Shown here in pieces: positions 1-61,847 of a stretch of DNA of 64,000 nucleotides. The stretch lies in NCBI RefSeq assembly GCF_018977255.1, contig NW_024704742.1:13270001-13334000 (forward strand), in the 5' to 3' direction. The notes under the pieces are model-generated. The model was given only the letters and a program-made list of their open reading frames with translations. It was not told the origin of the DNA and made no database searches. Numbering within the stretch: the first letter of the stretch is position 1; every line of letters begins with the position of its first letter. The DNA comes from Callorhinchus milii (taxonomy: Eukaryota). The position numbers and the translations under genes are program-made.

Positions 1-12
1 GATGGGGCAGTA

Positions 13-4268: not shown

Positions 4269-4278
4269 ATTGTTCATG

Positions 4279-8160: not shown

Positions 8161-8289
8161 CTCTAACCAATCAATTCTGTTTTTAGACCCTCTAGCACAT
8201 TGTCCCTTTCCTAAAGAAAGTCTGTCTATTGAGCGCCTTGGGACGTCTCCAAGGTGCTATACAAATGTAATTTTGTTGTTGTTGTTGTA

Positions 8290-15488: not shown

Positions 15489-15939
15489 GTCCGCCCTGAA
15501 GTGAGTTAAGGTTACAAATGTAAACCCACTTTTATTACTGTAATTAATGTAAAATTGGTACCATTCCCCTCTATCTCTTCCACTACATTCAATCTCCAAT
15601 CTATTTTAACATTTTTATGATTCTTTAATCGTTCATAAAAAATTCCACATTTTTTTCCATCATAAAAATCCATCAATTGTAGTAAATCATTATTAATAAT
15701 GATAAAAATAAAGTAACAAGGTTATACTTAAATTGTATGACCACAAAAATAAAATATTACTTTAGTGGGTGTTCCTTTTTTATGGGCACACTTCTTTTCT
15801 TTCAAAATATCATCTTCCAAAATTCCCAATCAATGTATCCATGTTTAATTTGTATAAACATCACTTTGATTAAATACTGGAATGTATAAAATAAATGATA
15901 CATGAAATAAAATCAGAATAAATCCAGTAATATTAAGAT

Positions 15940-19426: not shown

Positions 19427-21634
19427 ATCTTTCAATCCTTCTTGAACACCTGGGGTGGTGCCAGAGGACTGGGGGGTTGCAAATGTTACTCCGCTGTACA
19501 AAAAAGGGCAGAAGGATAAACCCGTGAACTACAGGCCTGTCAGCCTCTCAGTAGTGGAGAAACATCTGGAGACGTTAATCCGAGACAAAATAAATTTTCG
19601 CTTAGAAAACTATGGGTTATAAAGGACAACCAACATTGATTTGTTAAAGGCAAATCATGTCTAACAAACCTGATAAGAGTTTTCTTTGATGAAGTAACGG
19701 AGAGGGTGGATGAAGGTAGTGCAGTTGATGTAGTTTATATGGATTTTCAAAAGGCTTTTGATAAAGTGCCACATAAGAAACTGGTCAGCAAAATAGAAGC
19801 CCACGGTATTAAAGGGACAGTGGCAGCATGGATACAGAACTGGCTGGGAAACAGAAAGCAGAGAGAGGTGGTGAACGGTTGTTTTTCTGACTGGAGGGAA
19901 GTGTGCAGTGGTGTCCCCCAGGGATCAGTATTGGGACCACTGCTGTTTTTGATGGAGATACATGACCTGGACTTGGATACAGGGAGTACAGTTTCCAAGT
20001 TTGCAGATGATACTAAGCTAGGAAAAGTGATAATTAGTGAGGAGGATAGTAAGAGGACGTAGACAGACTGGTAAAATGGGTAGACACATGGCAGATGAAG
20101 TTTAATGTGGAGAAATGCAAAGTGATGCATTTTCGGAGGAAGAATGAGGAGAGGCAATATAAGCTGATGGGATAATCTTACAGGGGGTGAATGAAAAGAG
20201 AGACCTGGGGATTCATATAAGTAAATCTTTGAAGGTATCAGGACAGGTAGATAAAGCTGTTAACAATCACACGGGTTACTAGGCTTTATAAATAGGGGCA
20301 GAGAATACAAAAGTCAGGAAGTTATGATGAACCTTTATAAAACACTGGTTAGGCCTCAGCTAGAGTACTGCGTTCAGTTCTGGGCCCCACACTTTAGGAA
20401 GGATGTCAAGGCATTGGAGAGGATGCAAAGGAGATTTACCAGGATGCTACCAGGAATGAGGGACTTTAGTTATCAGGAGAGGCTAGAGAAGCTTGGATTA
20501 TTCTCCTTGGAGCAGAGAAGGTTACGAGGAGACTTAATAGAAGTTTTCAAAATTATGAGGGTGGCAATGTGAACAAGGAGAAACGATTTCCACTGGCGGG
20601 TGGGTTGGTAACCTGAGGACACCAATTTAAGATAGTTGTTAAAAGAAACATAGATTTTTCATAGATTCATAGAATGTTACGGCACAGAAAGAGGCCATTC
20701 GGCCCATCGAGTCTGTGCGGCTCTTTGACAAAGCAAGTCACTTTCACTAACCCCAATCACCAGCTTTCTCCCCATAACCCTGCAAACCCGTCCTCCCCAG
20801 ATACCTATCCAGTTCTCTCTTAAAAGCTGTTATCGAATCGGACTTCACTACCCTTTCAGGCAGATCATTCCAAATTCCAACAACTCGCTGAGTGAAAAAA
20901 TTTCTTCTAACCTCCCCTCTGCTTCTTTTGGCAGATATCTTAAGACTGTGACCACGGGTCACAGACACACCTACCAGTGGAAACAGCTTTGCCTTATCGA
21001 GCCTGTCGAAACCTTTCATGATCTTGAAGACCTCTATCAGGTCCCCGCGTAACCTTCTCTGCTCTAATGGGAAAAGTCCTAACTTCTCCAGCCTGTCCTC
21101 ATAGCTAAGGTTCCCCATTCCTAGTATCATTCTCGTGAATCTCCTCTGCACCCTTTTCAGTGCTTAATGTCCTTCCTGAAGTAAGGTGCCCAGAACTGGG
21201 CGCAGTACTCCAGCTGAGGCCTAATCAATGTTTTGTATAGATTAACCATAACCTCCCCACTCTTATACTCTATGCCCCTACTAATGAAGCTCAGTACACC
21301 AAATGCCTTTTTTACTGCCTTATCCACCTGCCCCCCTACCTTTAATGATTCGCTTACTTGAACACCCAGATCATGAGGGGAGGTGAGGAGAATTTTTTTC
21401 ACACAACGAGTTGTTTGGATCTGGAAAGCGTTGCTTAAAAGGATGGTGGAAGCCAATTCAATCACAACTCTTAAGAGAGTAGTAGATAATTATTTGGGGA
21501 GGACAAGTTTGCAGGGCTATGGGGAGAGAGTGGGGGGTGTGGGATTGAATTGGACAGCTCTTTTCAAAGAGCCGGCACAGACACGATGGGCCGGATGGCC
21601 ATTTTCTGTGCTGTATAATTCTATGATTCTATGA
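19427..21634 (+). mobile_element. Same nested CR1 pair, second copy
   Basis: ORF translations identical to 2061-4268. Confidence 0.9.
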
Positions 21635-21644
21635 ATTGTTCATG

Positions 21645-21669
21645 NNNNNNNNNNNNNNNNNNNNNNNNN
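21645..21669. other. Assembly gap (25 N)
   Basis: Run of N; the flanks are contiguous in the paralogous copy near 50450. Confidence 0.99.
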
Positions 21670-23584
21670 AGTCTCCATGTCAGGCGTGTGTAACAATAAA
21701 TCCTTAACATATTGAATGATTGCAGTAGTTTGACTAAACTGTGTTATCACTTGAGCCATTCTTTGACGAAATATTGACAGAGAGTTATGAAATCCCTGGG
21801 GTATTGTTGGCTGTGAAAAGTAAAACAAATTTGCACTGACAACCAGGGTGTAACGGAACAACCCAAACCCATTTGATATATCAAGTACAGAAAATACTTT
21901 TGACTGAGGCGAGTACATCTGGTGCAGACACCACTGTGTGAATTATGTATTCAAATGGGACATTTAGAAATAAAATAGCCATGTATTTTAATAATATTTT
22001 CGTCATTGTAAACTATTGTGTATTGATTTAATCTCCTAGAATCTATTGTGAGTCGCCATAACCATCTGGTTTTCTAACTGCCCAAATGGGAGAATTATTA
22101 GAGATTACAATCCTTCTTAAAACTCACTGTTTCAGTAATGAATTTACAGTGGCTTGTCAGCTTCCTGAGGAAAGCAATATTCCTTCATCGGATGTGGAGG
22201 GTCTTCTCCAACGATTTTTAACCTGTCCTGCTAACTTTCCACAATCGTGTTTGTGATTTGCAAAAACAACGTTATTAGTGGTTAGTACGTTAGCAATGTT
22301 AACATTGTCATGTGTTAACATTTACTTTAAATCATACCACTCAGTTTTCTTTATTGCATAAACAGCTCCATGATCTGTTAATTTATTCCAAATGTAAGTG
22401 CCAGGTTTGGCACTTTCAACTTGCCATTATAGTTTGTTTGCAAAATCAATTATCAAATGATATTTGTCCATCAGATCTGCACCAATAATGTTTAAATTGT
22501 CTGGTGTGTTCACCAAAATACATGGCCATTTTATTTCTAAATGTCCTATTTGAAGTGGAATTGGAATTGATTCCACCGGTATTGACAATTGCCTGTAAAC
22601 CCACCTAATTGAGTAACTGTTTTAGATGCAAACTGCAATTAGGGTTCGGGTTAGGTGCAAAGACACAAGTAGCTTGTTGTCATTGTGGGACATTCCTGGT
22701 CTGAGTGTAAAAAAAATAGAATGCGAAACTTGTAGTAAAAAGGAACACATTAGTCCTGATTGTAGATTCAAAATAAAATGTAAGAATTGTGGTAAAATGG
22801 GACATATGACAAAATATTGTAAACATGAACAGATAAGAGGGCTGGTTTGAATCTAAAAGACATGGTAGGACAAATGAAATCAGAGTTTGGAAAGCTTAAA
22901 TGAAAGCTTTTCAAAGCCAGGCAACTGCGGCACCTGCTGTTCTTCTGATGTATAACATACAAGGAGGAGATAAGAGTTCATGAAGGGATGAATTGACAAT
23001 TAGAGGTCTTCACTGAGATAATGTGCCCATTAGAAATTAATAATCATGGAAGACCATAATATTTATTATTTTTTATAAATGTATTATAAATAATAATTAT
23101 GTATTCAAATAGGACATTTAGAAATAAAATGGCCATGTATTTTAATAATATTTTGGTCATTGTAAACTATTGTTATTGGACACTGGTGTCTCTCGAACTG
23201 TGATATATGAAAAAGACCCACAAAATTTGCAGTTTGCATCTACTCAACACTGAGTAGGTGAATGAACAGATAAGAGGGCTGTTATCACTGTTGCATTCAC
23301 CTACAAAATACACAGTCACTGCACTATCCAGTAAAATCCTGTGAAGGGCTTTGACATCCTCCACACATATTTAGTTTAATCACTAAAGGGCAATCCGTTA
23401 TAATAGCCCTGGTAAAGCTCTTGGGATCTCACTTTAATGTCTCATCCAAAGGACAGCACCTTCAGTGAATGGGACAACCAGCACTTTTGCCCAGACAGCC
23501 ATTGTGGGACGTCAATACTGATCCAAACATTATGATTCTCAAATTATTTTTTTCTTGTTTCTATTGATAACCGCCTCAAAACAT

Positions 23585-25150
23585 TAATAACATAACATGT
23601 AGGAGCAGGAGTAGGCGCCTGCCGCGCCATTCAATTATGGCTGATCTTCTAATCTAACTCAGCTAATAACATAACCCTGCCTCATCCCCATATCCCTTAA
23701 TACTTTTTACAATAAGAAATATATCTATCTCAGTCTTGAATATGTTCAAGGACTGAGCGTCAACAGCCATTTGGGGTAGCGAGTTCCATACATTCACCAC
23801 CCTTTGAGTGAAAAAGTTCTGCGATAGGGCTGGCCTCTGATTTTAAGGTTGTGACCCCTGGTTTTAGTTTCTCCAACCAGGGGAAACAATCTCCCACTAT
23901 CTACTCTATCATGCCCTTTGATGATCTTATAGGTTTCTATAAGATCCCCTCTAATTCTTCCATATTCTAGAGAATATAGCCCAAATTAGTCAGCCTATCC
24001 TCGTAACTCATCTCCTTCATCCCTGGTACTAACCTTGTAAATCTACTCTGCACCCCTCCAAGGCAAGTACATCCTTCCTTAAATAAGGAGACCAAAACGG
24101 CACACAGTATTCCAGGTGTGGTCTCACCAGGGCCCTATACAGTTGCAGCAAGACTTCCCTACTCTTATACTCTAATCCTTTCATAATGAATGCTAACATC
24201 CCGTTCTCCTTCCTAATTGCTGCTGTACCTGCAGACTAACTTTCTGTGATTGGTGTACAACACCCAAGTCCCTCTGGACGCCAACACATTCCAATCTCTC
24301 CCCTTCTAAAAAAATAACCTGCTCTAATGTTTTTGCTCCCTAGGTGGATGACTTCGCACTTCCCTACATTATACTTCATCTGCCACCTACCTGCCCAATC
24401 ACCTGACCTATCTATGTCGCGCTGTCCTCTGTGTTGACACTTCCTCCTAGTTTTGTGGTAGAATCCGCGAATTTAGATATATTAACTTCGATGTCCTCAT
24501 CTAGATCGTTGATGTAGATGGTAAATAGCTGAGGCCCAAGGACTGATCCTTGTGGCACTCCACCAATCACATCCTGCCAATCTGAAAAGGACCCATTTAT
24601 CCCTACTCTTTGTTTCCTACCCGTTAAACATTCCCCAATCCACGTTAATATGCTCCCCCAATTCCGTGGGCCCTATCTTTTGGACTAACCTTTTGTGCGG
24701 CACCTTATCGAATGCCTTCTGGAAGTCCAAATAGACCACATCCACTTATCTAGTTTACTCGATATACCCTTATCTAGTTTACTCAAAGTATCCTCAAAAT
24801 TTGTAAAGCCATGTTGACTTGGCCTAATTATATTGTGCTCCCCTATATACTGCACTACCACATCCTTAATCAACGATTCTAAAAATTTGCTATCACTGAT
24901 GTGAGACTAACTGCCTATCTTTTCCCCATCTTTTCCTTTCCACTTTTTTAAATAGTGGCGTGACATTTGCGATCTTCCAATCCATGGGGACTGTTCCAGA
25001 ATCCAAGGAATTTTGGAAGATTAGACACAAGGCCTCCACTATCTCATAAGCTACCTCTTTTAAAACCCTGGGATGCAAGCCATCCGGACCAGAGGATTTG
25101 TCACTTTTTAGTGCTAACAGTTTCCCTAGCACCAATTCTCTACTAATGAA
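23585..25150 (-). mobile_element. CR1 ORF2 3' portion (left palindrome arm)
   Basis: [38 protein letters not shown]. Confidence 0.88.
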
Positions 25151-25192
25151 AATTGCAAAAACTGCAGGGATCCAATTTTAAAGTTTTAAAGT

Positions 25193-25500
25193 GAGTCCTG
25201 TAGCTCAGTGGTTAGAGCGCTCGCTTTGCGAGCGAGAGACCTGAGTTCAATTCCAGGCAGGGCCAAACTTTGGGCAAGTTTCCTTACTCCACACACCTAA
25301 TAATAATCCCTCCAAAACCAAAAACAATAATAACTTGGTCATTTTCAATCTACGACTGTTTGTGGACATTGCTGTGGGCAATTGGCTGCCGCGTTCTTTC
25401 ACAAATATACAGTCAATTCACTTTACAGTGTGTTCTGTGAAGCGCTTTGGGATGTCCTCCAACGTGAAAAGCGCTATATCAAATGCAAAGATTATTATTT
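25193..25500 (+). mobile_element. tRNA-derived SINE with L2-like tail
   Basis: A-box TAGCTCAGTGG, B-box GAGTTCAATTCC, core CAATTGGCTGCCGCG, tail GCGCTATATCAAATGCAA..(ATT)n. Confidence 0.85.
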
Positions 25501-25801
25501 ATTTATTTGCCACCAGCTGGGGTCTGAAACTCTGTCTGTCCAGCGCATTGGGATGTCCTCGCAACGTGAAAGGTGCTATACAAATGTAATTTTGTTGTTG
25601 TTGTTGTTATTGTCTGATTCCAAAATCTCTGCAAGTTTCGACTATTATAATGTGTCCTTGGTTTATTATCAACCGCAGTGAGCTGCTCTTATCAACACTG
25701 AAGCTTTCATTCACTGATCAATATATTACTATTTTCGCCCACAAAATATACAGTCAATTCACTTTACAGTCTATTCCACGAAGCGCTTTGAGACGTCTCA
25801 A

Positions 25802-27139
25802 ATTTTGTTCCTATTCTTATACTCTCAAGCAGCATCTGGTCATTGTCCTGCATCCCCTAACTCTTGACCTTTGCTCTTGTGATTTAATTAACCCGTTCAG
25901 GAATGCTCTTAACTCAGTATTCCTCGCTCTTCCTTTCTGACCTTTGCTCTCGTCCTTCACCTAACAGGTTTCTAAAAAAAGGTGTTGACTCTTACCTTCA
26001 CCTTCAGATCATTACCTTCCTCAAGATTTGCTTCTGCACACGGCGTTCATTGTGTCGGTCCCGTTCAGTGATGGGTTCTCACACATTCCTTTGCCCTCAT
26101 GACTCTTCTCCTGACTCCTAATGTCCTTGTCCCAGTTTCCCTGTCCTGGCCTTGAAACTGTTTTCTGACATGTTTATTTGTTCTGGAAAATGTAACTTTG
26201 TCTAACTTCTTTGATAGCTCCATGACTATAAGCGTTGATTCATATGATTATGGGCAATGTACTCGCTGTCATTTAATAAGGAAAATGGGCAATTGATTGA
26301 CCTATGAAACCCCTGAAGTCAAGAGTAAAATGGAACCTAGCGGTCAGCAGGCTGGTACAAACTGGTTTAGAGCTATCTTAACTTCGTCTAACTTCTGTGA
26401 TAGCTCTAAACCAGTTGGTTAATATATAAGAATATAAATATAAGTATAAGAATAGGAACAAAATCTGAGTGAAGTTGTCTCGGATTGGGGAGGGAACAGA
26501 GGAGGAGCTCTGTGGTCACCCTTGTGAAGGGCTGACCTCTGCAACCGAAACCACAGAAACTCAAGATTGGGAAGGGCAGACTGTTAGTGAAAAGACAAAC
26601 TTCTTGATTGTCCGGCAAGTCAGTACTTTGACAGAGACAGAGAGAAGAAAGGAGCAGGCAGACCAGATCATCTGGTAACTGGTATCAGTCGATACCAGGT
26701 GGGGAGAGGCATGCGGTCCAAGTTGTGGGGATCGCCAGCCGCCAAACCAAGAAACCACCTTTCGGAGGAGAAAGGAAGAGAGACTGTTGAACGAGTAGTA
26801 TGGTTTCATTGGGGGACTTAGTAGGTCATTCAAGCTGTTAATTATCTGCTGTTGCGTCACAAATTATTGATTATTTTCTGTTGTGTCACAAATTATATGA
26901 GTTATCGAATTACCTCTATTCAGGTATTTTTCCTAACAAAGTATAAGGACAAAACTAGCTACTAACGTACTCCTTGATCCATAAAATACCAAGGTGACTA
27001 TCCTATTAGTGTTATACATGTATTTACGTCTGAAACTTGAGTTGACTTTACTGTACTAAAGTTGTGCTAATAAAATATTAAACATTGTGTCAAACACTCC
27101 AGTGTCTCAGTGTTTACCAATCACTCACAAAAGTTTACA
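25802..27139 (+). mobile_element. Rearranged LTR-like element (TATA to ...TTTACA on +, upstream part inverted)
   Basis: TATAAGAATAGG at 26445, AATAAA near 27069, end TTTACA at 27139. The 22-mer around the TATA is repeated inverted at 25802-25823. Confidence 0.45.
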
Positions 27140-28897
27140 GGGGTGTGTGTGTATGTGTAGAGGAAGGGGAGGATGTGTGTGTGTGTGTGGGGGGAGGGTG
27201 TGTGTATGTGTGAGTGTGTAGGGGTGAGCAAGTATGTGGAATCTCTACCTTCGCAATACACTGTTATACACTGGAGCTGAATATTGCCGTTTGGCATGGG
27301 GAATGTGCAACACATATTGTTTACATTTACTTTTAGAACAGATTGTTCTGATTTGATTCTATCTGGAGGTCTACTTCGGAGATAGGTTTTGCTTGTGAAT
27401 GCTTCATTGCAGTTGTTGTGCTGAAGGTTATTTAAATCAAACCCACGGATGTTTACCTGATCCTTTGCAAACATTGATGTACCCACTTGTGCTCTCTTAT
27501 CCTGTGATTTCCTAAGGTGAACTTCTGACTTTACCTACTTGGGGTTAGACATTCGCTTTAGAAAAAAGGTTTGAAAAATATCACCTTGGAGTCACAAATA
27601 ATGGCTCCCACTGACTACAGGCTGTGGGATCGACACTGGAAACCGTTCAGCTCAGGAACCGAGTTATTCAGAACGCCACCGAGGATTGACTTGATTCTGA
27701 TATTCCATTGGAGTCAACACAGCCCAAGGAAAGCCTACTTATCCCTTCCAACTGCCCAAGATAGTAAGGGAATTATAGAAGTATATTAGAAGAAGTAAAT
27801 ATGGCTATAATAATAATAATCCTTGCATTTGAAATTGCGTCTTTGAGACGTCTCAAAGCGCTTCATAGAATATACTGTAAAGTGAATTGACTGTACATTT
27901 TGTGTGCGAAATAGTTATATATTGAGCTGTGGCAAGGCTTCGATACAGAAGGGTACCAATTCAAGGAGTGAGGGAAGGAGGGAAAATATTTACTCCTCAG
28001 CTGTTAATTACCCTGTTTGTCAGGAAACACTTCCTGATGTCTGCCCTAAACTTGATTATCACAGCCCTGAATCTGTACCCTTCTGTATCGAAGCCTTGCC
28101 ACAGCTCAATATATAACTATTTTCGCACACAAAATGTACAGTCAATTCACTTTACAGTATATTCTATGAAGCGCTTTGAGACGTCTCAAAGACGCAATTT
28201 CAAATGCAAGGATTATTATTATTATAGCCATATTTACTTCTTCTAATATACTTCTATAATTCCCTTACTATCTTGGGGCAGTTGGAAGGGATAAGTAGGC
28301 TTTCCTTGGGGCTGTGTTGACTCCAATGGAATATCAGAATCAAGTCAATCCTCGGTGGCGTTCTGAATAACTCGGTTCCTGAGCTGAACGGTTTCCAGTG
28401 TCGATCCTACAGCCTGTAGTCAGTGGGAGCCATTATTTGTGACTCCAAGGTGATATTTTTCAAACCTTTTTTCTAAAGCGAATGTCTAACCCCAAGTAGG
28501 TAAAGTCAGAAGTTCACCTTAGGAAATCACAGGATAAGAGAGCACAAGTGGGGTACATCAATGTTTGCAAAGGATCAGGTAAACATCCGTGGGTTTGATT
28601 TAAATAACCTTCAGCACAACAACTGCAATGAAGCATTCACAAGCAAAACCTATCTCCGAAGTAGACCTCCAGATAGAATCAAATCAGAACAATCTGTTCT
28701 AAAAGTAAATGTAAACAATATGTGTTGCACATTCCCCATGCCAAACGGCAATATTCAGCTCCAGTGTATAACAGTGTATTGCGAAGGTAGAGATTCCACA
28801 TACTTGCTCACCCCTACACACTCACACATACACACACCCTCCCCCCACACACACACACACACATCCTCCCCTTCCTCTACACATACACACACACCCC

Positions 28898-48610: not shown

Positions 48611-49062
48611 TCACTACATCTTATTTATTATTAATAAATAATAATAATCATTGCATTTTGTGTAATACCTTTCATGATCAGAGGACATTCCAAGTGCACA
48701 CTTTTATATTAAACAGAGGAAACAACAACAAATCATGTGTTATTACCGAATATGTGTGGAGGATGTCAAAGCCCTTCACAGGATTTTACTGGATAGTGCA
48801 GTGACTGTGTATTTTGTAGGTGAATGCAACAGTGATAACAGCCCTCTTATCTGTTCATTCACCTACTCAGTGTTGAGTAGATGCAAACTGCAAATTTTGT
48901 GGGTCTTTTTCATATATCACAGTTCGAGAGACACCAGTGTCCAATAACAATAGTTTACAATGACCAAAATATTATTAAAATACATGGCCATTTTATTTCT
49001 AAATGTCCTATTTGAATACATAATTATTATTTATAATACATTTATAAAAAATAATAAATATT

Positions 49063-52000
49063 ATGGTCTTCCATGATTATTAATTTCTAATGGGCACATT
49101 ATCTCAGTGAAGACCTCTAATTGTCAATTCATCCCTTCATGAACTCTTATCTCCTCCTTGTATGTTATACATCAGAAGAACAGCAGGTGCCGCAGTTGCC
49201 TGGCTTTGAAAAGCTTTCATTTAAGCTTTCCAAACTCTGATTTCATTTGTCCTACCATGTCTTTTAGATTCAAACCAGCCCTCTTATCTGTTCATGTTTA
49301 CAATATTTTGTCATATGTCCCATTTTACCACAATTCTTACATTTTATTTTGAATCTACAATCAGGACTAATGTGTTCCTTTTTACTACAAGTTTCGCATT
49401 CTATTTTTTTTACACTCAGACCAGGAATGTCCCACAATGACAACAAGCTACTTGTGTCTTTGCACCTAACCCGAACCCTAATTGCAGTTTGCATCTAAAA
49501 CAGTTACTCAATTAGGTGGGTTTACAGGCAATTGTCAATACCGGTGGAATCAATTCCAATTCCACTTCAAATAGGACATTTAGAAATAAAATGGCCATGT
49601 ATTTTGGTGAACACACCAGACAATTTAAACATTATTGGTGCAGATCTGATGGACAAATATCATTTGATAATTGATTTTGCAAACAAACTATAATGGCAAG
49701 TTGAAAGTGCCAAACCTGGCACTTACATTTGGAATAAATTAACAGATCATGGAGCTGTTTATGCAATAAAGAAAACTGAGTGGTATGATTTAAAGTAAAT
49801 GTTAACACATGACAATGTTAACATTGCTAACGTACTAACCACTAATAACGTTGTTTTTGCAAATCACAAACACGATTGTGGAAAGTTAGCAGGACAGGTT
49901 AAAAATCGTTGGAGAAGACCCTCCACATCCGATGAAGGAATATTGCTTTCCTCAGGAAGCTGACAAGCCACTGTAAATTCATTACTGAAACAGTGAGTTT
50001 TAAGAAGGATTGTAATCTCTAATAATTCTCCCATTTGGGCAGTTAGAAAACCAGATGGTTATGGCGACTCACAATAGATTCTAGGAGATTAAATCAATAC
50101 ACAATAGTTTACAATGACGAAAATATTATTAAAATACATGGCTATTTTATTTCTAAATGTCCCATTTGAATACATAATTCACACAGTGGTGTCTGCACCA
50201 GATGTACTCGCCTCAGTCAAAAGTATTTTCTGTACTTGATATATCAAATGGGTTTGGGTTGTTCCGTTACACCCTGGTTGTCAGTGCAAATTTGTTTTAC
50301 TTTTCACAGCCAACAATACCCCAGGGATTTCATAACTCTCTGTCAATATTTCGTCAAAGAATGGCTCAAGTGATAACACAGTTTAGTCAAACTACTGCAA
50401 TCATTCAATATGTTAAGGATTTATTGTTACACACGCCTGACATGGAGACTCATGAACAATTCATAGAATCATAGAATTATACAGCACAGAAAATGGCCAT
50501 CCGGCCCATCGTGTCTGTGCCGGCTCTTTGAAAAGAGCTGTCCAATTCAATCCCACACCCCCCACTCTCTCCCCATAGCCCTGCAAACTTGTCCTCCCCA
50601 AATAATTATCTACTACTCTCTTAAAAGTTGTGATTGAATTGGCTTCCACCATCCTTTTAAGCAACGCTTTCCAGATCCAAACAACTCGTTGTGTGAAAAA
50701 AATTCTCCTCACCTCCCCTCATGATCTGGGTGTTCAAGTAAGCGAATCATTAAAGGTAGGGGGGCAGGTGGATAAGGCAGTAAAAAAGGCATTTGGTGTA
50801 CTGAGCTTCATTAGTAGGGGCATAGAGTATAAGAGTGGGGAGGTTATGGTTAATCTATACAAAACATTGGTTAGGCCTCAGCTGGAGTACTGCGCCCAGT
50901 TCTGGGCACCTTACTTCAGGAAGGACATTAAGCACTGAAAAGGGTGCAGAGGAGATTCACGAGAATGATACTAGGAATGGGGAACCTTAGCTATGAGGAC
51001 AGGCTGGAGAAGTTAGGACTTTTCCCATTAGAGCAGAGAAGGTTACGCGGGGACCTGATAGAGGTCTTCAAGATCATGAAAGGTTTCGACAGGCTCGATA
51101 AGGCAAAGCTGTTTCCACTGGTAGGTGTGTCTGTGACCCGTGGTCACAGTCTTAAGATATCTGCCAAAAGAAGCAGAGGGGAGGTTAGAAGAAATTTTTT
51201 CACTCAGCGAGTTGTTGGAATTTGGAATGATCTGCCTGAAAGGGTAGTGAAGTCCGATTCGATAACAGCTTTTAAGAGAGAACTGGATAGGTATCTGGGG
51301 AGGACGGGTTTGCAGGGTTATGGGGAGAAAGCTGGTGATTGGGGTTAGTGAAAGTGACTTGCTTTGTCAAAGAGCCGCACAGACTCGATGGGCCGAATGG
51401 CCTCTTTCTGTGCCGTAACATTCTATGAATCTATGAAAAATCTATGTTTCTTTTAACAACTATCTTAAATTGGTGTCCTCAGGTTACCAACCCACCCGCC
51501 AGTGGAAATCGTTTCTCCTTGTTCACATTGCCACCCTCATAATTTTGAAAACTTCTATTAAGTCTCCTCGTAACCTTCTCTGCTCCAAGGAGAATAATCC
51601 AAGCTTCTCTAGCCTCTCCTGATAACTAAAGTCCCTCATTCCTGGTAGCATCCTGGTAAATCTCCTTTGCATCCTCTCCAATGCCTTGACATCCTTCCTA
51701 AAGTGTGGGGCCCAGAACTGAACGCAGTACTCTAGCTGAGGCCTAACCAGTGTTTTATAAAGGTTCATCATAACTTCCTGACTTTTGTATTCTCTGCCCC
51801 TATTTATAAAGCCTAGTAACCCGTGTGATTGTTAACAGCTTTATCTACCTGTCCTGATACCTTCAAAGATTTACTTATATGAATCCCCAGGTCTCTCTTT
51901 TCATTCACCCCCTGTAAGATTATCCCATCAGCTTATATTGCCTCTCCTCATTCTTCCTCCGAAAATGCATCACTTTGCATTTCTCCACATTAAACTTCAT

Positions 52001-55000
52001 CTGCCATGTGTCTGCCCATTTTACCAGTCTGTCTACGTCCTCTTACTATCCTCCTCACTAATTATCACTTTTCCTAGCTTAGTATCATCTGCAAACTTGG
52101 AAACTGTACTCCCTGTATCCAAGTCCAGGTCATGTATCTCCATCAAAAACAGCAGTGGTCCCAATACTGATCCCTGGGGGACACCACTGCACACTTCCCT
52201 CCAGTCAGAAAAACAACCGTTCACCACCTCTCTCTGCTTTCTGTTTCCCAGCCAGTTCTGTATCCATGCTGCCACTGTCCCTTTAATACCGTGGGCTTCT
52301 ATTTTGCTGACCAGTTTCTTATGTGGCACTTTATCAAAAGCCTTTTGAAAATCCATATAAACTACATCAACTGCACTACCTTCATCCACCCTCTCCGTTA
52401 CTTCATCAAAGAAAACTCTTATCAGGTTTGTTAGACATGATTTGCCTTTAACAAATCAATGTTGGTTGTCCTTTATAACCCATAGTTTTCTAAGCGAAAA
52501 TTTATTTTGTCTCGGATTATCGTCTCCAGATGTTTCTCCACTACTGAGAGGCTGACAGGCCTGTAGTTCACGGGTTTATCCTTCTGCCCTTTTTTGTACA
52601 GCGGATTAACATTTGCAACCCCCCAGTCCTCTGGCACCACCCCAGGTGTTCAAGAAGGATTGAAAGATGTTGACAGAACTGTTACAGTTGCTCTATGAAT
52701 CAAGATTAAAAGTAAATCCTAAAACACACAGATTGCTAAAGAGAATGCATCATTTTTAGGATCCAAATTGGTAAAGATGTTCGTACCTGATGAAGATAAA
52801 ATGACGACCATTAAGCTCTTACCCTGGCCAACTTCTGTCCCATCATTGAGATCTTTTTTAGGATTGGTAGGGGATTGCAGGGTTTTTATTGAAGATTTTG
52901 CTACACTCAGTGCTCCCCTTTATGCTTTATTACAATAACATGCTGAATGGAATTGGACGCCAGCCTGTACTGAGCAGCACAAAAGTTAAAACAAGTTTTA
53001 GTGTCAGCGCCTGCTTTACAAGTTCCAGAAAGGGAACCTTTTTATTTGGAAGTAGCAGCCCCAGATTTAGTTATTTCAGCAGTTTTATTACAGCACAAGC
53101 ATAGTAAACTGTGTCTCTGCATATGCATCCAGAGTATTGACTCCTGTAGAACTAAATTTTTCAAAATGTGAAAAACATTTTGGGCTGTGCAACATTTTGT
53201 TTTATCACTGCTGTTTTAACTCTTTATCAGTTTTTTATCAATGTTTTAACATTGTTGGTTTATCACCTATGCTTTTGTTAACCAATTATACCCCAACAGA
53301 ATTACTTTTAGATGGTATCAAATGTCCGTATGGCTCGATGGACTTTATTGTTACAAAAACGAGACATTACGATAAAACATTTCAATTCTCCGCCATTTTT
53401 GGCTAACAAGTTACTCTATGAAGAGGATACTCGTTATTGTGGTATAAGTGGCCCAATTTATCTGAAGGGTCCATTCAAAGCGATTGAAATTCCACAATCC
53501 ACTACTGTCTGTCAATGGATCTAATTCAGTAGTTGAGGGGATGAGGCAAACCGGATTTGGAATTTATGTTCCACAAATGGATTTAAAAGTAAGAATTTCT
53601 TTACCTGATCACTGAGCAGTACAGGGGGCAGAATTAGCTGCAATTAATAATAATAACAATAATAATAATTGCATATGTTTTATGAAACATCGACATGTAT
53701 CCATTACCAATTACTATCTATTCGTATTCCATGTATGCATGTAATTTACTTATAGAGTATCTGCCAATAATGGAAGGTGAGGGGGTTTGTATTGGCAGAC
53801 TGGAAACCGCTCCCTCTGGAAAATTACTGCAAGCTATTATTAAAATTGCTTTACCTTATAAGTCTCAAATTGCAACTCAAAAAGTCAAGCACACACAAAC
53901 AACATACCTCATGCAAAAGGTAATAATACAGCAGACGAATTGGCAAAGAAAGGGGCTACTGGTGACACAAAATGGGATCCAGCCATATTGTACCAATCTC
54001 TGGAACAAGTGGCCGCAATAATCTCACAAGAAAAACCCGTAGATTTAAAATGTGCCCAAGACACTGATGTGGAAATAGTACAAACTATTAAAGCACTAAA
54101 TTCAAAAGAACCTGTGAATAATTAATATTCAAGGCATGATTCAACTTTCAGTGTAAAACAGTTTGTTGTTTCATAAAGGTTTGTGGGTAGTTCCAATAAT
54201 TACAATGATTATATTGATCAAAAATTACAACACGTACATGATGCACCCATATCTGGTCATCAATCCAGCGCTACAACGTTAGACCGACTAACAACAAATA
54301 GCCTGGTGGCCTAAATGTGCAGACGATGTAAAACACTATTGTGAAAATTGCCTAATTTGTGCACAAATAAACCCTGACTTAAATTTAAAGACAGCTCTTT
54401 TGAAACATTAGCATGATTCAACAATAGAAGGTCCACGGACACAATTGCAAATTGGTTTTATTGGTCCACTTCCTCCTACATCTCGTAACAATCGTTATGC
54501 ATTAGTGCTAGTTGATACCTTCACTAAATGGGTTGAAGCGTTTCCAATGCCTCATAATACTGCACAAGCCACAGCAAAAATTCTTATGAAGCATATATTC
54601 ATTCGATGGGGTCTTCCAGTAGCTATTGATTTGGATCAAGGATCTCATTTTACAGGAAAGGTCACACGATGTGCAATGCAGTTGTTAGCAATTACACAGA
54701 AATTCCATATGCATATCATCCTCAATCATCGGGAACAGTGTGAAGCAAACTCTAAAAGCCATGTTACGCAAATTTATCACTGAAAACGTAAAATGTTTGG
54801 ATCAATTGTTACCATTAGTGCTAATGGCAATCAGATCAACACCTTCTCGGACAACATGTTCACCATATGAGTTAATAACAGGGAGATTAATGTGTACACC
54901 TGAACAATTATGGCTCACTGATATGTCAGATCCTGAAATTCAGGCTGTGACACATGAACAATATGTAAAACAATTGTGTATACATTTGAAAGAAATACAT

Positions 55001-56336
55001 TTGTTTTCTGCTTCAAATATTGTCTGTTCTAAACAGGCAAATGCTATGTACTTTGATCAAAAAACAAAACCGGTAGAGTGGGAAGTTGGCCAACGGGTTA
55101 TGATAAAAAAACTATGATCTAAAAGGACCATTCTCCCCTCAATATGCTGAACCATACTATATTGTGGATAAAGCAAATGCTTCAGTGTATCAGGTAGCCA
55201 GCACTATCAAGAAGAATGCCCGTCCAAATTGGTATCACTGCAATCAACTAAAATTGTATAAAGGCAGTGATGATAAACCTAATTGGAAGCCTCCTTTGTA
55301 GGATGTAAAACCCATGTGCGTAGCAAATGATTATCCAAAAAGAGGTGAATATCTCCACATTTGGGATGACGTTATTACGCCTTTTGAGGAAGATCAGTTC
55401 AGGAGAGGAACTGAAGAGTCAGTACAAAGACCATTGAGATCTGTTCATTCATTAGAAGAAATAAGTACAGAGGTCGCAATGATATCGACAGCTGTAGATT
55501 AGGGAGGAATAAAAGTTTGGTTAAGAAGTAGAACAAGGGAAAAAACTAAACAACAGAAAGCCTGTTTAGGATGTGATCAACATCCAAGTAGGAGAAAGAA
55601 AAATACACAAGGACACAAAGATTCATTATAGAATTATAAATTGTAGAAGATTCCTGAAATCACCCCAAATAAAATGGGGAGGATAATTTAACTTTTAATT
55701 TTATGTTACAGAAGAAAAGATATTTGAGAAAAAATGGAAGAGAGGATTGAAAACCAAATCAATTTTGATAAAAGAATTGGGTAACTGGATTAAAAGTAAT
55801 AACTTTTTTGAAAATGAGTAGAATACAAACAGCAGTCAGGGGCATTTACATTTTTTTTATAGCACCTGGCTGTGAATCAGTTTTATTCCAAATTAGTGAG
55901 AAAGCTTAAACCTCTCTAAAAATGGTTGAAAAAATAAATTTCAAAGTTGCTCACAGTTGCGCAAGGCCAATTCAGACCTGGTATGCTGTCATCCAATGAC
56001 ACCACCTGCTGATGTTTATAAAAAATATCTTGGGCTACAGAAAATATTCTGACAAACATTCCCAAGCACAAAAAAAGGAAAAAATGTGATGGCAATTGGC
56101 CAGCCAAATAGCAAGACAATATTTAAAGAATATGGGGGTCTGCATAGAACTACACATAAGACCAAATAATTTGGGACGTGTGATGTGAGAGTGAAATGAC
56201 AGGGTAGAGTGAACATTGATAGATATAAGAGAGAAAATTATTAATTTTCTAATCAATAATGTCACATACATTGACATTTTAGTAGGTTTAATTGTAATAA
56301 ATACTATAGCGTCAATTACTCTATACTCTCAAATTA
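49063..56336 (+). mobile_element. Decayed LTR retroelement/endogenous retrovirus, most complete copy (inverted gag end, PR, RT, tether, RNase H, IN, post-IN region), interrupted by CR1 at 50461-52668
   Basis: Read across frameshifts. PR: NIIGADL. RT: NSPIWAVRKPDG/WRLTID/SVLDISNGF/PQGFHNS/QYVKD. Thumb: LRSFLGLVG. Tether: PFYLEVAA..AYASRVL. RNase H: DGS..TGFGI..AELAAI..KVK.H..GN..ADELAK. IN: HHCC zinc finger, LVDTFTKWVEAFP, DQGSHFTG, GPF-type tail. Confidence 0.88.
50461..52668 (-). mobile_element. Same nested CR1 pair, third copy
   Basis: Reverse complement with a few substitutions. The retroelement RT reads ETHEQ before and LTELLQLL after the insertion. Confidence 0.9.
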
Positions 56337-57704
56337 CTGCCCCATCTCCAACCTCCCTTTCCTCTCCAAGGTCCTGGAACAAGTTGTTGCTTCTCAGCTT
56401 CACTCCTTCCTCTCCCGCCATTCCCTTCTCGAACCCCTCCAATTGGGTTTCCGTGCCGCCCACAGCACAGAAACAGCCCTGGTCAAAGGGACAAATGACA
56501 TTCTCTCCATCTGCAACCAGGGCTCCCTCTGCCTCCTCGTCTTCCTTGACCTCTCTGCTGCCTTCGACACCATCGACCACTCTATCCTCATCCACCACCT
56601 CTCTTCTGTCCTTGACTGGTTCAGTTCGTACCTCTCACACCGCCTCCACTTCATCTCCACAAACATTTTTTTCTCTCGCCATTGCACCGTCTCATGCGGC
56701 TTTCCTCAGGACTGTCCTTGGTCCCCTCCTCTTCAATATCTATATGCGCCCTCTTGGTGACATCATCCGCAGACATAGGGTCAACATGTATGCAGATGAC
56801 ACCCAACTACCACTCTGTCTCTACCTTTAACTCCAGGACCACTGCTGTCCTGCCACTGCTGTCCTGACAGAATATCTGTCGGATATCAAGTCCTGGGTGA
56901 GAGCTAACTTTCTTCATGTAAACAACGTAAACAAGACCGAGGCTCTCCCGTCAGCGCCTCCTCACCTCAGGCGCTGACAGCAACACCATCTTTGGTTGCA
57001 CAGCTTGCTAAGCCAGTCCGGAACCTTGGGGTCTTGTTTGACCCTCAACTGTCCTTTAGACTTCACATCTGCGCCATGACCCGCTCTGCCTTCCCCCACC
57101 TCTGCAACATTGTCCGGTTCCACCACTGTCTCACACCGCAGGCCGCCAAAACCCTCATACACGCCTTCATAACATCGAGGCTCGACTATGCAAACTCCTT
57201 GCTTATCGGCCTCCCCAACTCCTCCCTCCACAGGCTGCAGATCATCCAGAACTCTGCAGCCCGTGTCCTCTCCCGCACTAAGCTCTGCGACAATATTGCC
57301 CCCATCCTCGCCCAACTCCACTGGCTTCCCATCACACAGAGGATACAGTTCAAGATCCTGGTCCTCACCTTCAAAACCCTCCATGGTCTTGCTCCCCCCT
57401 ACCTCTGTGACCTCCTAACCGCTACCATCCTGTCGCTACCTCCGCTCAGCGGGCTGTGGCCTGCTTCACGTCCCCTGCCTCGCTCACCCCACTATTGGCG
57501 GGTGGGCCTTCCGCCACTCTGCACCCACCCCTCTGGAACTCCATCTCGCTGTCCCTCCACCTTGCCCCCTCCCTTGCCACCTTCGAGACCCATCTCACGA
57601 CCCTCCTCTTCGACCGTGCCTTTGATCTCCCTGCTTCTGAAATACTGTACACTGTCCAGCGCCTTGGGTCTTCCTCCTGACGTGAAAGGCACTATACAAA
57701 TATA
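56337..57704 (+). mobile_element. L2 LINE, counterpart of 15940-17378 with a different 3' end
   Basis: Same RT motifs; ends in GTGAAAGGCACTATACAAAT. Confidence 0.9.
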
Positions 57705-58570
57705 ACATAACATGTAGGAGCGGGAGTGGGCCATTCGGAAGAAGTTCTTCCTCAACTCAGTGCGAAAGGGCTGCCTCTGATTTTAAAGTTGTGACCCCTG
57801 ATTTTAGTTTCTCCAACCAGGGGAAACAATCTCCCACTATCTACTCTATCATGCCCTTTGATGATCTTATAGGTTTCTATAAGATCCCCTCTAATTCTTC
57901 CATATTCTAGAGAATATAGCCCCAAATTGGTCAACCTATCCTCGTAACTCATCCCCATCATCCCTGGTACTAACCTTGTAAATCTACTCTGCACCCCCTC
58001 CAAGGCAAGTACATCCTTCCTTAAATGAGGAGACCAAAACTGCACACAGTATTCCAGGTGTGGTCTCACCAGGGCCCTATACAGTTGCAGCAAGACTTCC
58101 CTACTCTTATACTCTAATCCTTTCATAATGAATGCTAACATCCCGTTCTCCTTCCTAATTGCTGCTGCATCTGCAGACTAACTTTCTGTGATTGGTGTAC
58201 AATGACCCCAAGTCCCTCTGGACGCCAACACATTCCAATCTCTCCGCTTCTAAAAAAAACCCGCTCTACTGTTTTTGCTCCCTAGGTGGATGACTTCGCA
58301 CTTCCCCTACGTTATACTTCATCTGCCACCTACCTGCCCAATCACCTGACCTATCTATGTCGCGCTGCATTTTTTAAATGTCATCCTCTGTGTTGACACT
58401 TCCTCCTAGTTTTGTGTCATCCGCGAATTGCCACTCCACTAGTGCCAATCCCGCCAATCTGAAAGGGACCCATTTATCCCTACTCTTTGTTTCCTACCCG
58501 TTAACCATTCCCCAATCCACGTTAATACGCTCCCCCCAATTTCATGGGCCCTTATCTTTTGTACTAACCT
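57705..58570 (-). mobile_element. CR1 3' fragment closely related to 23585-24690
   Basis: ORF 57752..58141 is nearly identical to 31841..32248. Confidence 0.85.
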
Positions 58571-58741
58571 TTTCTGTTTTTAACCTTTTATGGTTAATAT
58601 AATCTTGCTGTTGTTGTTCCCACCCTGTCCTCAACCCTCCCTGCACCCGACCCCAGCTCGGGCCCGAAAGTCTGTCTATCAAGCGCTTTGGGACGTCTTC
58701 CCAAGGTGCTATACAAATGTAATTTTGTTGTTGTTGTTGTA

Positions 58742-59780
58742 AACTCTTCCTCACAGCACTAGTTAACCTCTCTGCAAGGACATCGGTCCCAGCCTATTCA
58801 GGTGTAACCCATCTACCAGGTCCCACCTGCCCCAGAACTGGTACCAACACTCCAGGAATCTGAAGCCCTCCTTTCTGCACAATTTCTCCAGCCATGCATT
58901 CATGTGTTTGATCCTGCTGTTTTGATACTCACTTGCACGAGGCACTGGGAGTAATCCATCTTTGAGGTCCTATTCTTCAGCTTTTTCCCTAGCTTCTGAT
59001 ACTCTCCTTGAAGGATCTCAGCCCTTTTCTCCCCTACATCAGGGATCCCAACATGGACCATGACTTCTGGATATTCTTTCCCAGTAGAACGTTTTGCTCC
59101 CGTTCTGTGATGTTTTCAACCCCGGCACAAGGGATGCGAGAGTCACATCTTTGGTTGCACAAACGCCTGTCTGCTCCTTTCACCATTGTGTCCCCAATAA
59201 CAATTGCATGGACTATTCCCTCTGTCCCCTTGTGCACCCATTTGCTTTTGATTACCCTCCGCAGAGGGGCACCACCCTGACTGGCATTCAATGCAGAGAC
59301 ACGGTTTGTGAGTGCCACACTCAGGGGATTTCTGCACTCCCCATCCTTTCTTCCTATCATGCCAGGTGGTCACCCACTCACTCTCGTTCTGAACCCTCTG
59401 TGGCTGTGGGGTGACTACCTCCTGAAATGTTCAATCCATGAACTCTTCAGCCTCCCATATGCTATGTAGTGACACCAGCCTCTCCTCAAGCTCAGAAACT
59501 CTGATCAAGCTCGAGCAGCCGGAGGCACTTCCGACACACGTGTCTGTCCAGGGCACACAGAGCATCCTGGAGTTCCCATATGGTACACATTGTGCATGCT
59601 GCTGCCATATTCCCAGACTTGTTTTCTATTATTTTAATATAACTTATATATTTTATAATTATGCACCTCATGCCTCCTCTGCACCAAATTCCCACTCTCA
59701 CCAAATTCCTTAACAGAATTCTCATTCTGTTCCACCTCACTCAGTTCCCTCCTCACACTGCTGGGCTCTCTGCTCCGATC
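58742..59780 (-). mobile_element. CR1 5'UTR/ORF1 fragment, duplicate of 8290-9290 (more complete)
   Basis: Same motifs plus AIVIGDTMVKG (GDS-like block). Confidence 0.8.
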
Positions 59781-61555
59781 ATTTTATGCTGGGATATAAT
59801 TACTTAAGCAACCAGAATTGTAAGTAATTAGAAAATTGTTAGCTCTATACATTAAACAAATTATTTTACATAATATACACATAAGTGATTATGTGATAAG
59901 TGATAAGTCAAAACAGAAACAGCATTAAAACCCAACATTCCCAAAGGACCATTGGATCCAGAGTCTCACTCCACCCTATATCTGCAATCTCCTTCAATTT
60001 TACAGGCCACTTAGCGAGTACCGGCCTCACGTCCCCTCCTCAATCCATCCCACCATTGGCTGGCAGGTTTCAGCAATATTTGCCAATTAAGCAGAGAAAA
60101 TAAAATGAATCACTACTAGAGCTAATGTCTACCCAATCCAGGTTGTAGAGATGGGAATTACATGAAATAACCAAATTGACATCACCTCCAGCAGATCCAA
60201 ACCTGAAGACTGTAATCAAAAATTTCTTCCAAGTTTTTAAAAAAAATATTATATCCTAGAAGTCCATAAAAAGTTTAGTTGCTTAAATTTGTCTTTGAAC
60301 TGCCTTAATGAACTTGCACTTATCCCATCCACCCTGGGTTTCAATATAAAGCGTCCCAGATGAGAACGTCACAAAAAAACATTAAAAATCTCACATAACG
60401 CAGCATTAAGCCATTATTCCAGTTTCACCAGACCTGTGCTGATAGTTGAAATCAGCCAGGACAGAGTTGGGTCGCATATAGGCCTTTGGGTCCTCGAGTT
60501 GCGGAAAGGAAAAAACAAAGAGGTTCAGATAAAGAAGGTCTTTGGACCAATTTGATTTAACTCTTACAGAATACCCAGTCTGTTATTATTTATATTAAAG
60601 CATTGAGCCTGCTTAAAAGACTCCAGTGGACTGGTCTCAACCACACTTCCTGCTTAGCCTTTCCAGATATTAATTACCATCAATGTAAAGAAATATTTCC
60701 TGCAATCTGTCCTCAAATTACCTTTCACAACATTCAATCTGTGTTTTCTTTAGTTCAGCCAAGTATCTGAAAATCCTCCATGTTTAATCTCCAAAAACAG
60801 TATACTGAATGAATGCATAACCATTTTTTACCTGGGATAGATGTTGACCAAGACGCTATAGAAATTCACAGCACAGATTGAGCTCAAAGTTCCAACATGG
60901 TGTTTGAACCCAGAACCTTTTAACTCAGAGGCAAGAGTGCTAACAACTGAGCCAATATGACACTGGTTTCCATTCGCTTGGAATACAATACGCACAATCC
61001 TTATCGAACTCTAGAGGGTGTTAGGCACAGGATGGGGGAATCCCAGAATGTGTGTTGTGACTCTACTGGAGCTTAAAAAGCTAAAACTGCAACCTACCAT
61101 TGTGAACAAATGTATCAAGCTTCCCACTGCTTATCCAACTAGGGAAATGCCAAATAACCCATCAGGGATTTGGGTTGCAGGGCTAATTTTGGGGGGGTCT
61201 GCCAAGCATCTGACAGATGCAGAAACACATCACCACACACACCATTTGGAAATACAGAGTTCCAAAGATGTGAAGACTTTCCTCTTTGATCATGCTTCCC
61301 GCCACCCTCCCCCCTAATCAATCAATGACTGTTTGTGGGACACTTCTGTGCTCAATTGGCTGCCGCGTTTCATCCACAAAATACGGTCAATTCACTTTGT
61401 GATATATTCTGTGAAGCCTTTTGAGATGTCGCAACAACATGATATATGAACTATATGAACTGCAGGGAAAATTATGATTATATTATTATTATTATCACCT
61501 CTGTCCCAAGGAGCCGTCACTTCTGGTTTACTCCCCTGCCCACCCCGGGGCTCTA

Positions 61556-61847
61556 ATAATAATAATCCTGGCATTTAATAAAGCGCCTCATCACGTCTTT
61601 GAGATGTCTCAAAGCGCTTCACAGAATTGACTGTATATTTGTGGACAAAACGCGGCAGCCAATTGCACACAGCAGTGTCCCACAAACAGTCGTGGATTGA
61701 AATGAACAATTTATTATTATTTTTTTGTTGAGGGATTATTATCAGGCTTGTGGAGTAAGGAAACGAGCCCAGGGTTTCACCTTGCTGGGAATCGAAACCA
61801 GGTCTCTTGCTTGTGAGGCGAGTGCTCTAACCACTGAGCTACAGGAC
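61556..61847 (-). mobile_element. tRNA-derived SINE
   Basis: Same family; full head and tail. Confidence 0.8.

Follow-up and report, generated by a model that had tools for sequence, protein, structure and literature searches.

Retroviruses and their sister lineages are the frame in which the element described here has to be read, a decayed endogenous retrovirus (ERV) in a stretch of 64,000 nucleotides of the Callorhinchus milii genome (contig NW_024704742.1 of assembly GCF_018977255.1, positions 13,270,001 to 13,334,000 of the forward strand), which is referred to as the window. The family to which this copy belongs is named W. Judged by the score of the reverse transcriptase (RT), its nearest named virus is the snakehead retrovirus SnRV, which matches the N-terminal half of the W RT with 147 bits and 50% identity and which, like W, has a CCHC nucleocapsid of the orthoretrovirus type, a tether, an RNase_H domain and an HHCC integrase. 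The sole knuckle of SnRV, CRNCGKAGHMARDC, resembles the knuckle CKNCGKMGHMTKYC of the window copy; however, SnRV possesses one knuckle, whereas W originally had three. Under the name CmiERV, three lineages have been described, one of which, lineage I, is SnRV-like according to Han (2015, PMC4422223).

Foamy viruses and foamy-like ERVs (FLERVs) form the second group of described relatives. The foamy Gag protein carries Gly-Arg boxes and no Cys-His knuckles, whereas W combines CCHC knuckles with a protease of the RVP type. CmiFLERV and XtrFLERV show the same pattern of shark plus frog relatives as W (PMC5512871), and supplementary Fig. S3 of PMC7947760 brackets XtrFLERV and two CmiFLERV with the foamy viruses, next to SnRV. 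The third group, the lokiretroviruses and the Odin elements, shares with W the succession of tether and second RNase H, a number of short RT strings and a similar integrase; however, lokiretroviruses have a PFGY or PFGL motif B and an F-like env, and W has neither. The lokiretroviral Env is described in PMC7947760 as similar to the paramyxovirus fusion glycoprotein, with an RXKR site and a fusion peptide. That paper also bears out the host range of lokiretroviruses given at first pass, namely lampreys, bony fishes, amphibians and reptiles; as far as its screening data show, Chondrichthyes were included and yielded no lokiretrovirus, and its supplement lists three genomes of Orectolobiformes, none with a lokiretrovirus, and a row for Callorhinchus without an asterisk. 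Odin elements come from sea anemones according to PMC9040795. Further background can be found in PMC10699275 and PMC6001957, as far as these papers touch on the subject.

The element in the window is a decayed and rearranged copy of an old ERV family. Its RT and integrase trees suggest that W is likely a canonical, deep-branching retrovirus lineage on the side of SnRV, which is accompanied by ERVs of the coelacanth, of frogs and of the same genome. The closest proteins to W are Pol proteins called 'NYNRIN-like' in the database, from Latimeria chalumnae, Rhinophrynus dorsalis, Pyxicephalus adspersus and Aquarana catesbeiana. One of the Latimeria proteins, P0003, could be laid onto the window in nine tblastn pieces, which cover 1000 of its 1480 residues from the protease through RNase H to the end of the integrase. 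Decayed coding sequence thereby runs along the plus strand from 49499 to 55298, in the order C-terminal half of the protease, RT, tether, second RNase H and integrase:

49499-49693, plus strand: C-terminal half of the protease (NIIGADLM); open frame inside the tblastn piece of P0003 residues 307-541.
49694-50094, plus strand: RT fingers (NSPIWAVRKPDG and WRLTID) with frame changes; translations, tblastn pieces and 85-87% DNA identity to other copies.
50180-50460, plus strand: RT palm (LDISNGF, PQGFHNS; YVDD decayed to YVKD); Pfam RVT_1, E 3.8e-7, and translation.
52670-52935, plus strand: RT thumb; tblastn piece of P0003 residues 610-810, top phmmer score to a frog Pol (46 bits).
52974-53403, plus strand: tether, a degenerate gypsy-type RNase H fold (PFYLEVAA, AYASRVL); Pfam RT_RNaseH_2 below the cut-off.
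53466-54122, plus strand: second RNase H (DGS, AELAA, SYS in place of SDS, GNNTADELAK) in three frames, with an AAT run; RNase_H matches of paralogues.
54157-55298, plus strand: integrase with HHCC finger, catalytic core and SH3-like C-terminal part; Integrase_H2C2, rve, a weak SH3_Tf2-1 match and P0003 residues 1006-1479.
55299-56318, plus strand: post-integrase region common to the family copies, 81-83% identical to copy C2:80.95M; no gene recognised.

A Pfam scan over 20 fragments of the window detected RVT_1 at 50178-50471 (E 3.8e-7; 30.5 bits against a cut-off of 29.6), RT_RNaseH_2 at 52974-53168 (E 2e-6; 28.2 bits, slightly below the cut-off of 29.8), Integrase_H2C2 at 54292-54408 (E 9.9e-7) and rve at 54412-54780 (E 1.2e-11). 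The degenerate gypsy-type RNase H fold, which a first-pass annotation of the window had placed behind the RT thumb, is thus supported by a sub-threshold match in the window, and intact relatives of W give strong RT_RNaseH_2 matches; the integrase proposed in the same annotation was recovered as well. RNase_H (PF00075) matched none of the four window fragments that cover 53466-54122. The separate RNase HI that had been read from this region is nevertheless real, because paralogous copies match RNase_H and P0003 tiles across the region: the stretch is about 84% identical at the DNA level to copy C2:80.95M, whose open frame of 199 amino acids matches RNase_H with E 3.9e-16, and two further W copies match with E 1.4e-7 and 6.4e-9. 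Both RNase H domains are therefore supported by hidden Markov models, the tether by the sub-threshold match in the window itself and RNase_H through family copies. In family W, the integrase is separated from the 3' long terminal repeat (LTR) by about 2 kb, in which no env was recognised in the frames of the window and of copy C2:80.95M; in this copy, the post-integrase frames and the gag frames, apart from knuckles and protease, gave nothing above noise in Pfam.

The end of gag and the N-terminal half of the protease are also present in the window, but on the other strand:

48878-49470, minus strand: segment of about 590 bp inverted in place, with the gag end (nucleocapsid) and the N-terminal half of the protease; orientation compared with other copies.
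49270-49494, minus strand: nucleocapsid open frame with two CX2CX4HX4C knuckles; Pfam zf-CCHC, E 5e-6, in two stretches.

On translation, the inverted segment carries the protease motif LLLDTGVS on the minus strand, and a pattern search located the knuckles at residues 32 and 51 of the minus-strand frame 49270-49494. The two Gag knuckles noticed at first pass are hence present, although they lie on the minus strand inside an inversion. Five other copies (C3:60.5M, C4:14.18M, C4:40.28M, C2:80.95M and C2:14.21M) hold the nucleocapsid/protease segment in the direction from gag to pol. In the window copy, a third, upstream knuckle has decayed; copy C2:80.95M is better kept, with both LTRs, a protease reading DTGA and all three knuckles (zf-CCHC, E 6e-12). 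The ancestral Gag of family W had three knuckles.

The RT tree comprised 66 rows and 265 columns and was calculated with IQ-TREE under LG+G4; supports are given as ultrafast bootstrap (UFBoot) and SH-like approximate likelihood ratio test (SH-aLRT). Its rows were 62 of 97 extracted RT rows, from which four partial rows of less than 200 amino acids had been removed, and four read-throughs of W, and it includes two natural Loki-type RTs, which were taken from contigs C466 and C548 of the same assembly. Further references stem from scans with degenerate motifs, which provided 16 foamy, 12 gamma-type and seven delta-like genomes; labels were checked by Pfam on seven of these, and Spuma_A9PTase was found in 3/3 foamy genomes and the expected integrase domains in 2/2 gamma-type and 2/2 delta-like genomes. 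In the RT tree, the gypsy rows form the outgroup (100/99), and the Loki-type rows (100/99) are sister to a clade (100/99) which holds W, SnRV, foamy, gamma-, delta-like and epsilon-like sequences. The four W rows are monophyletic (99/98) with Latimeria P0003 as their sister (89/79), and SnRV is the sole named virus near W. The integrase tree (58 rows, 300 columns) gives the W rows 100/100 support and places them with coelacanth and frog rows (97/92), and this wider W group is the first branch inside a 96/91 clade, outside which the Loki-type integrases lie. A retrovirus-type RT distinct from that of ordinary gypsy elements, as read from the letters alone, is consistent with the position in the canonical clade.

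The likeness to the NYNRIN-like Pol proteins extends to the domain order RVT_1, RT_RNaseH_2, RNase_H, H2C2 and rve and to an LPQGFHNSP-type motif, which is exact in P0002, P0004 and P0007 and reads HDSP in P0003. RT identity amounts to 52.8-53.9% (P0002 and P0003, 254 columns), with a sister position in both trees; over the N-terminal half of the RT, W copy L017 shares 63% identity with the Rhinophrynus and Latimeria Pol proteins and 55-59% with those of the two other frogs. The RT of copy C1:64.51M is 53.9% identical to P0003, 39.4% to SnRV, 35.1% to the Loki-type, 33% to the foamy and 30.7% to the gamma RT. NYNRIN-like Pol keeps long open frames, whereas W is decayed. Furthermore, P0003 has a Gly-Arg-rich box (residues ~130-170) upstream of its protease and no CCHC, in contrast to the knuckles of W; sister lineages thus diverge at the end of Gag that binds nucleic acid, in the way that separates orthoretroviruses from foamy viruses.

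The first-pass annotation had proposed a lokiretrovirus-type lineage, which would extend the range of these elements to a cartilaginous fish. That W is a lokiretrovirus-type or Odin-type element is highly improbable, even though several features point in this direction. W has the tether plus RNase H; it shares short RT strings with lokiretroviruses, with 50 occurrences of NSPIW and 63 of WRLTID in the PMC7947760 supplement; and its integrase core scores 84 bits against the Loki-type integrase, compared with 58 for gamma, 48 for SnRV and 28 for foamy. In addition, its relatives carry the name NYNRIN-like, and Loki integrases are grouped with CGIN1 in PMC7947760. However, Pfam finds RT_RNaseH_2 together with RNase_H in 3/3 foamy and 2/2 gamma Pol proteins tested, and the pair is therefore not diagnostic of lokiretroviruses: tether plus second RNase H is the ordinary retroviral state. 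As a sign of Retroviridae and their sister lineages, the pair read at first pass is present, but it does not separate Loki from foamy or gamma Pol. The Loki-type rows stand outside both the 100/99 RT clade and the 96/91 integrase clade that hold W, and forcing W and Loki into one clade costs 41.9 log-likelihood units (p-AU of the approximately unbiased test 0.024). The high integrase score reflects short branches that retain similarity rather than kinship, as the integrase tree indicates. Motif B reads LPQGF in W and all relatives, with an APTVA-type upstream stretch, as opposed to PFGY or PFGL and VPLSRWP in the Loki rows inspected; PFG in motif B as a Loki trait is the reading made here of the supplement rows, not a criterion stated by the authors. 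The W RNase H scores 32 bits against the Loki-type domain, below SnRV (50) and foamy (48), and no F-like env frame follows the integrase in the window or in copy C2:80.95M. With the lokiretrovirus assignment, the extension of the lokiretrovirus range by this element falls as well.

The main rival to an SnRV-side lineage is that W represents a FLERV of the kind reported from the chimaera together with a frog FLERV, basal on the foamy side. This seems unlikely, yet foamy viruses are the top solved-structure match for three W domains (RT N-half, E ~2e-25; second RNase H, PDB entry 2lsn, E 9.3e-13; integrase core, E 5e-6). Aiewsakun and Katzourakis (2017, PMC5512871) report that shark FLERVs, of which only pol was detected, cluster with the frog FLERV, and the relatives of W are from frogs and coelacanth; the coelacanth relative P0003 moreover has the Gly-Arg-rich box without CCHC upstream of the protease. 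On the other side, foamy sequences sit in another RT subclade, with class I and the P0022 group (95/93), from which W is excluded, in a tree sampled without the named fish FLERVs. The Gag of W has CCHC knuckles, whereas CX2CX4HX4C occurs in none of 16 foamy genomes in any plus-strand frame, in agreement with the lack of CCHC in foamy Gag noted at first pass, and the W protease matches RVP and not Spuma_A9PTase in Pfam. The Loki supplement prints rows for AciFLERV and ZFERV-2, both from ray-finned fishes, and these differ from W on visual inspection. Least probable of all is an assignment of W to the ordinary Ty3/gypsy elements (Metaviridae) or to the class I ERVs (gamma/epsilon-like). The tether of W still matches gypsy RNase H models, the SH3 tail of its integrase is GPY/F-like, and P0003 scores 211 bits against Ty3, near foamy (233) and XMRV (231); however, W has a second RNase_H domain, the gypsy rows lie outside as outgroup, W is not part of the class I clade (100/99), and MLVIN_C was found neither in the 20 window fragments nor in nine other open frames (Pfam). 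The RT thus falls neither among the gypsy rows nor in the class I clade, placements which would have spoken against the first-pass view of a retrovirus relative.

Several points weigh against the assignment of W to the SnRV side. The subclade that joins the W group and SnRV in the RT tree is weak, with 56/47 and 54/86, so that SnRV and W share it at 54-56 UFBoot, and the backbone within the canonical clade lacks resolution; the SnRV integrase groups with the foamy integrase (99/95) and not with that of W. A tree without Loki put the W group as a basal grade (32/30). Scores against solved structures favour foamy viruses, with 92 versus 57 bits for murine leukaemia virus (MLV) in the RT N-half and 51 versus 33 bits in RNase H. 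No similarity to SnRV gag or env was found in W, in which no env was recognised; tblastn with SnRV Gag, Env and the 3' open reading frame against six W copies and the window gave nothing at E<=0.01. The W rows of the tree are gapped read-throughs set on P0003 coordinates by tblastn, which might pull them toward P0003; rankings of scores made without this anchoring agree with the placement of W. Finally, the trees were built without ERV-L, lenti-, alpha- and betaretroviruses, CmiFLERV, XtrFLERV and CmiERV. The phrase 'otherwise basal retrovirus relative', which the first-pass annotation offered next to its lokiretrovirus proposal, is loosely compatible with the deep branch, in the part of the tree where the backbone lacks resolution. 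A stronger version appears rather doubtful, namely that W, its relatives from coelacanth and frogs and the more intact sister families of this genome make up a lineage without a name as yet, which evolves slowly and, perhaps joined by SnRV, branches off at the root of the canonical retroviruses or close to it. It would be compatible with the trees because W forms a basal grade without Loki, belongs to one of the two first splits (weakly) with Loki and branches first after Loki in the integrase tree.

The reference set was searched further for relatives of W. Scans of IMG/VR with Pol alignments returned only two records (2/11 and 2/38 candidate stretches), and these, L047 and L048, correspond to the rows '>SnRV' and '>Xen-1' of the PMC7947760 supplement in every stretch printed there. 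A word-indexed protein search with the 98-residue RT piece of the window gave no hit among 16 candidates, the search with the Pol region of SnRV gave 36 matches, none of which is a named exogenous virus, and for the W RNase H, which had 501 matches at E<=0.001, the 20 scanned with Pfam among the 150 listed included no foamy virus.

When the assembly (991.5 Mb in 1762 contigs) was searched at the DNA level, at least 25 loci of family W emerged at 70-90% identity. The search for more intact members suggested at first pass therefore yielded a family, but all loci fetched are decayed, and their longest open frame has 199 amino acids. Across the family, LTR, gag end, protease and pol are seen and no env was recognised; the LTR pairs of three copies are 79-91% identical, which together with the decay of all fetched loci indicates that the family is old. 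Sister families of W are more intact (C15:6.26M, C5:55.63M, C33:1.13M, C13:10.09M and C30:1.79M; L004, L005, L008, L055, L058 and L060), with open frames of up to 666 amino acids and RT_RNaseH_2, RNase_H, H2C2 and rve present. In the 265-column RT alignment they are 38-45% identical to the three W rows from genome copies and 39% identical to the window row, and in trees they group with the unnamed database proteins P0117 and P0006. A multi-copy unit that is 74-80% identical to the RNase H-integrase junction of W (window ~53915-54870) was observed on C884, C897, C1066, C1441, C1640, C1037 and C3:3.13M, with several repeats per small contig and the same two TGA stops in each.

The Loki-type references deserve separate mention. 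A motif scan of the assembly for PFGY…NSPA[ED]F revealed eight near-identical intact copies, which share 96-100% identity over 300 amino acids of RT (loci L098-L104):

C466:896-7495, minus strand: Loki-type copy.
C548:27244-32400: Loki-type copy.
C364, C556, C771 and C1182: Loki-type copies.
C909: two Loki-type copies.

The element has an open gag-pol frame of 2200 amino acids with RVT_1, RT_RNaseH_2, RNase_H, H2C2 and rve, and, on C548, an env in which a stretch resembling a fusion peptide comes after RTKR. Strings of the element's RT and Env are found unchanged in the supplement of PMC7947760, in the rows of the lamprey elements Loki-Lca and Loki-Pma. The env frames of C548 gave no Fusion_gly match in Pfam and PDB sequence searches, and the Env is instead identified by verbatim agreement with the Env printed for Loki-Lca. 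Every copy is on a small contig, two of these contigs were measured at 62 and 56 kb, and no diverged Loki-type copies were found on large contigs. Between 74 and 95% of the sampled words of the element are present in sequencing runs of five organisms from nine studies. Contigs from four large runs that contain the Loki-type sequence, each from a different organism, aligned to window 52669-56336 over no more than two stretches of 18 nt, an outcome that does not prove absence. Intact lamprey-type lokiretroviruses on small contigs are possibly contamination. Small contigs (~C75 to C1664) are likewise almost the sole location of over 100 gypsy-like RT matches, whose open frames are long (~270-1800 amino acids), whereas W-related retrovirus-like families are mostly on large contigs, which may mean that two repeat populations are present in one assembly.

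Within the window, the copy of W is interrupted, split and duplicated by the following features:

50461-52669: composite CR1/L2-type insertion of a long interspersed element (LINE) in RT, with fragments both ways round; paralogue junction and inverted repeat arms.
48942-49025: unit of 79-85 nt, first copy; repeat search, blastn and alignment, other copies without the unit here.
50095-50179: unit of 79-85 nt, second copy, within RT; other copies have about 15 nt at this point.
56319-57637, plus strand: L2-like LINE in the provirus tail (RVT_1, E 2e-14); the local duplication stops at 57637.
14762-15941, minus strand: provirus tail (15489-15941) and 3' LTR (14762-15488) beside the inverted duplicate.
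17313-23371, minus strand: inverted duplicate of 48749-56400, 98-100% identical (blastn); gap of N at 21645-21669.
1-4278, minus strand: third copy, 100% identical to 17367-21644 (megablast) and cut by the window start.

The LINE block of about 2.2 kb in RT contains an RVT_1 match at 52033-52455 on the minus strand (E 1.8e-16, Pfam), and its borders are fixed by copy C1:64.51M, in which 50460 is joined straight to 52670. An interruption of RT by a LINE had been proposed before and holds, with collinear paralogues placing it at 50461-52669 as a composite CR1/L2-type block; the small insert noted in RT was likewise confirmed as 79-85 nt and assigned to 50095-50179 by paralogues. The central 40 nt of the 79-85-nt units are the exact reverse complement of the element's own protease stretch 49566-49605, and the flanks are far less similar. 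Together with the in-place inversion, these units resemble a local templated rearrangement. Copy C1:64.51M bears a different inversion, of the RT N-half. The previously assumed element end at 56336 had to be revised, as the L2-like LINE at 56319-57637 splits the tail; this LINE also lies in the inverted duplicate, between 17395 and the tail at 15941. The LTR at 14762-15488, which shares 84% identity with its counterpart in copy C2:80.95M, is the sole 3' LTR surviving in the window, the adjacent tail is 82-92% identical, and neither a 5' LTR nor the N-half of gag is left in the window. At least eight frame changes and at least ten in-frame stops were counted, and catalytic motifs have decayed from YVDD to YVKD in RT and from SDS to SYS in RNase H; the window copy is dead.

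The LINE block is found in all three local copies, and the inversion and the 79-nt units in both copies that reach them, the third stopping at 4278; the three copies are therefore segmental duplicates and not separate integrations. Both other local copies lack 53938-55549, that is the end of RNase H and the integrase. The regions 1-35782 and 48749-61635 form a nest of segmental duplications: a 4.6-kb palindrome pairs 23370-27966 with 32672-28065 (99.3%), 4279-7302 is inverted relative to 35782-32671 (96.6%), and 8216-11104 is repeated directly at 58666-61635 (96-97%). The complete identity of 1-4278 and 17367-21644, which adjoins the gap of N at 21645-21669, may be an assembly artefact. No host gene was found in the 64-kb window; an exact look-up of seven open frames from this genome gave no match, and taxonomic assignment went no further than Chordata.

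Taken together, the features would fit the following history. The ancestral W element presumably had an LTR at either end. Between them lay gag, whose terminal nucleocapsid carried three CCHC knuckles, then a DTG protease and RT, followed by the tether, RNase H and integrase and a stretch of about 2 kb that can no longer be read. The domains suggest a retroviral mode of replication, in which transcription is driven by the LTR and followed by reverse transcription and integration. The window copy has been disabled by the 590-bp inversion, two templated inserts of 79 nt, the 2.2-kb LINE block in RT and the L2-like LINE in the tail, as well as by the disappearance of the 5' LTR and of the greater part of gag, by frame changes and stops and by the decay of catalytic motifs. 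Afterwards, the disabled copy multiplied passively by local segmental duplication.

The window copy itself is one more decayed ERV of a kind known from basal vertebrates and is of little consequence. For the recognition of lokiretroviruses, the combination of a tether and a second RNase H with the strings NSPIW and WRLTID is insufficient; the discriminators in the present data are motif B (LPQG versus PFG) and a tree that includes Loki. Mining of small contigs without excluding contamination carries the risk of a false report of lokiretroviruses in a new host class; if the small Loki-type contigs are genuine, they would give an extension of the lokiretrovirus range, via an element other than W. 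Should W belong to a lineage at the base of canonical retroviruses, it would have kept a strongly gypsy-like tether and a Loki/NYNRIN-like integrase and would serve better than any other living lineage as a stand-in for the Pol of the ancestral retrovirus, and its lineage would be a candidate source of the integrase of NYNRIN (CGIN1).

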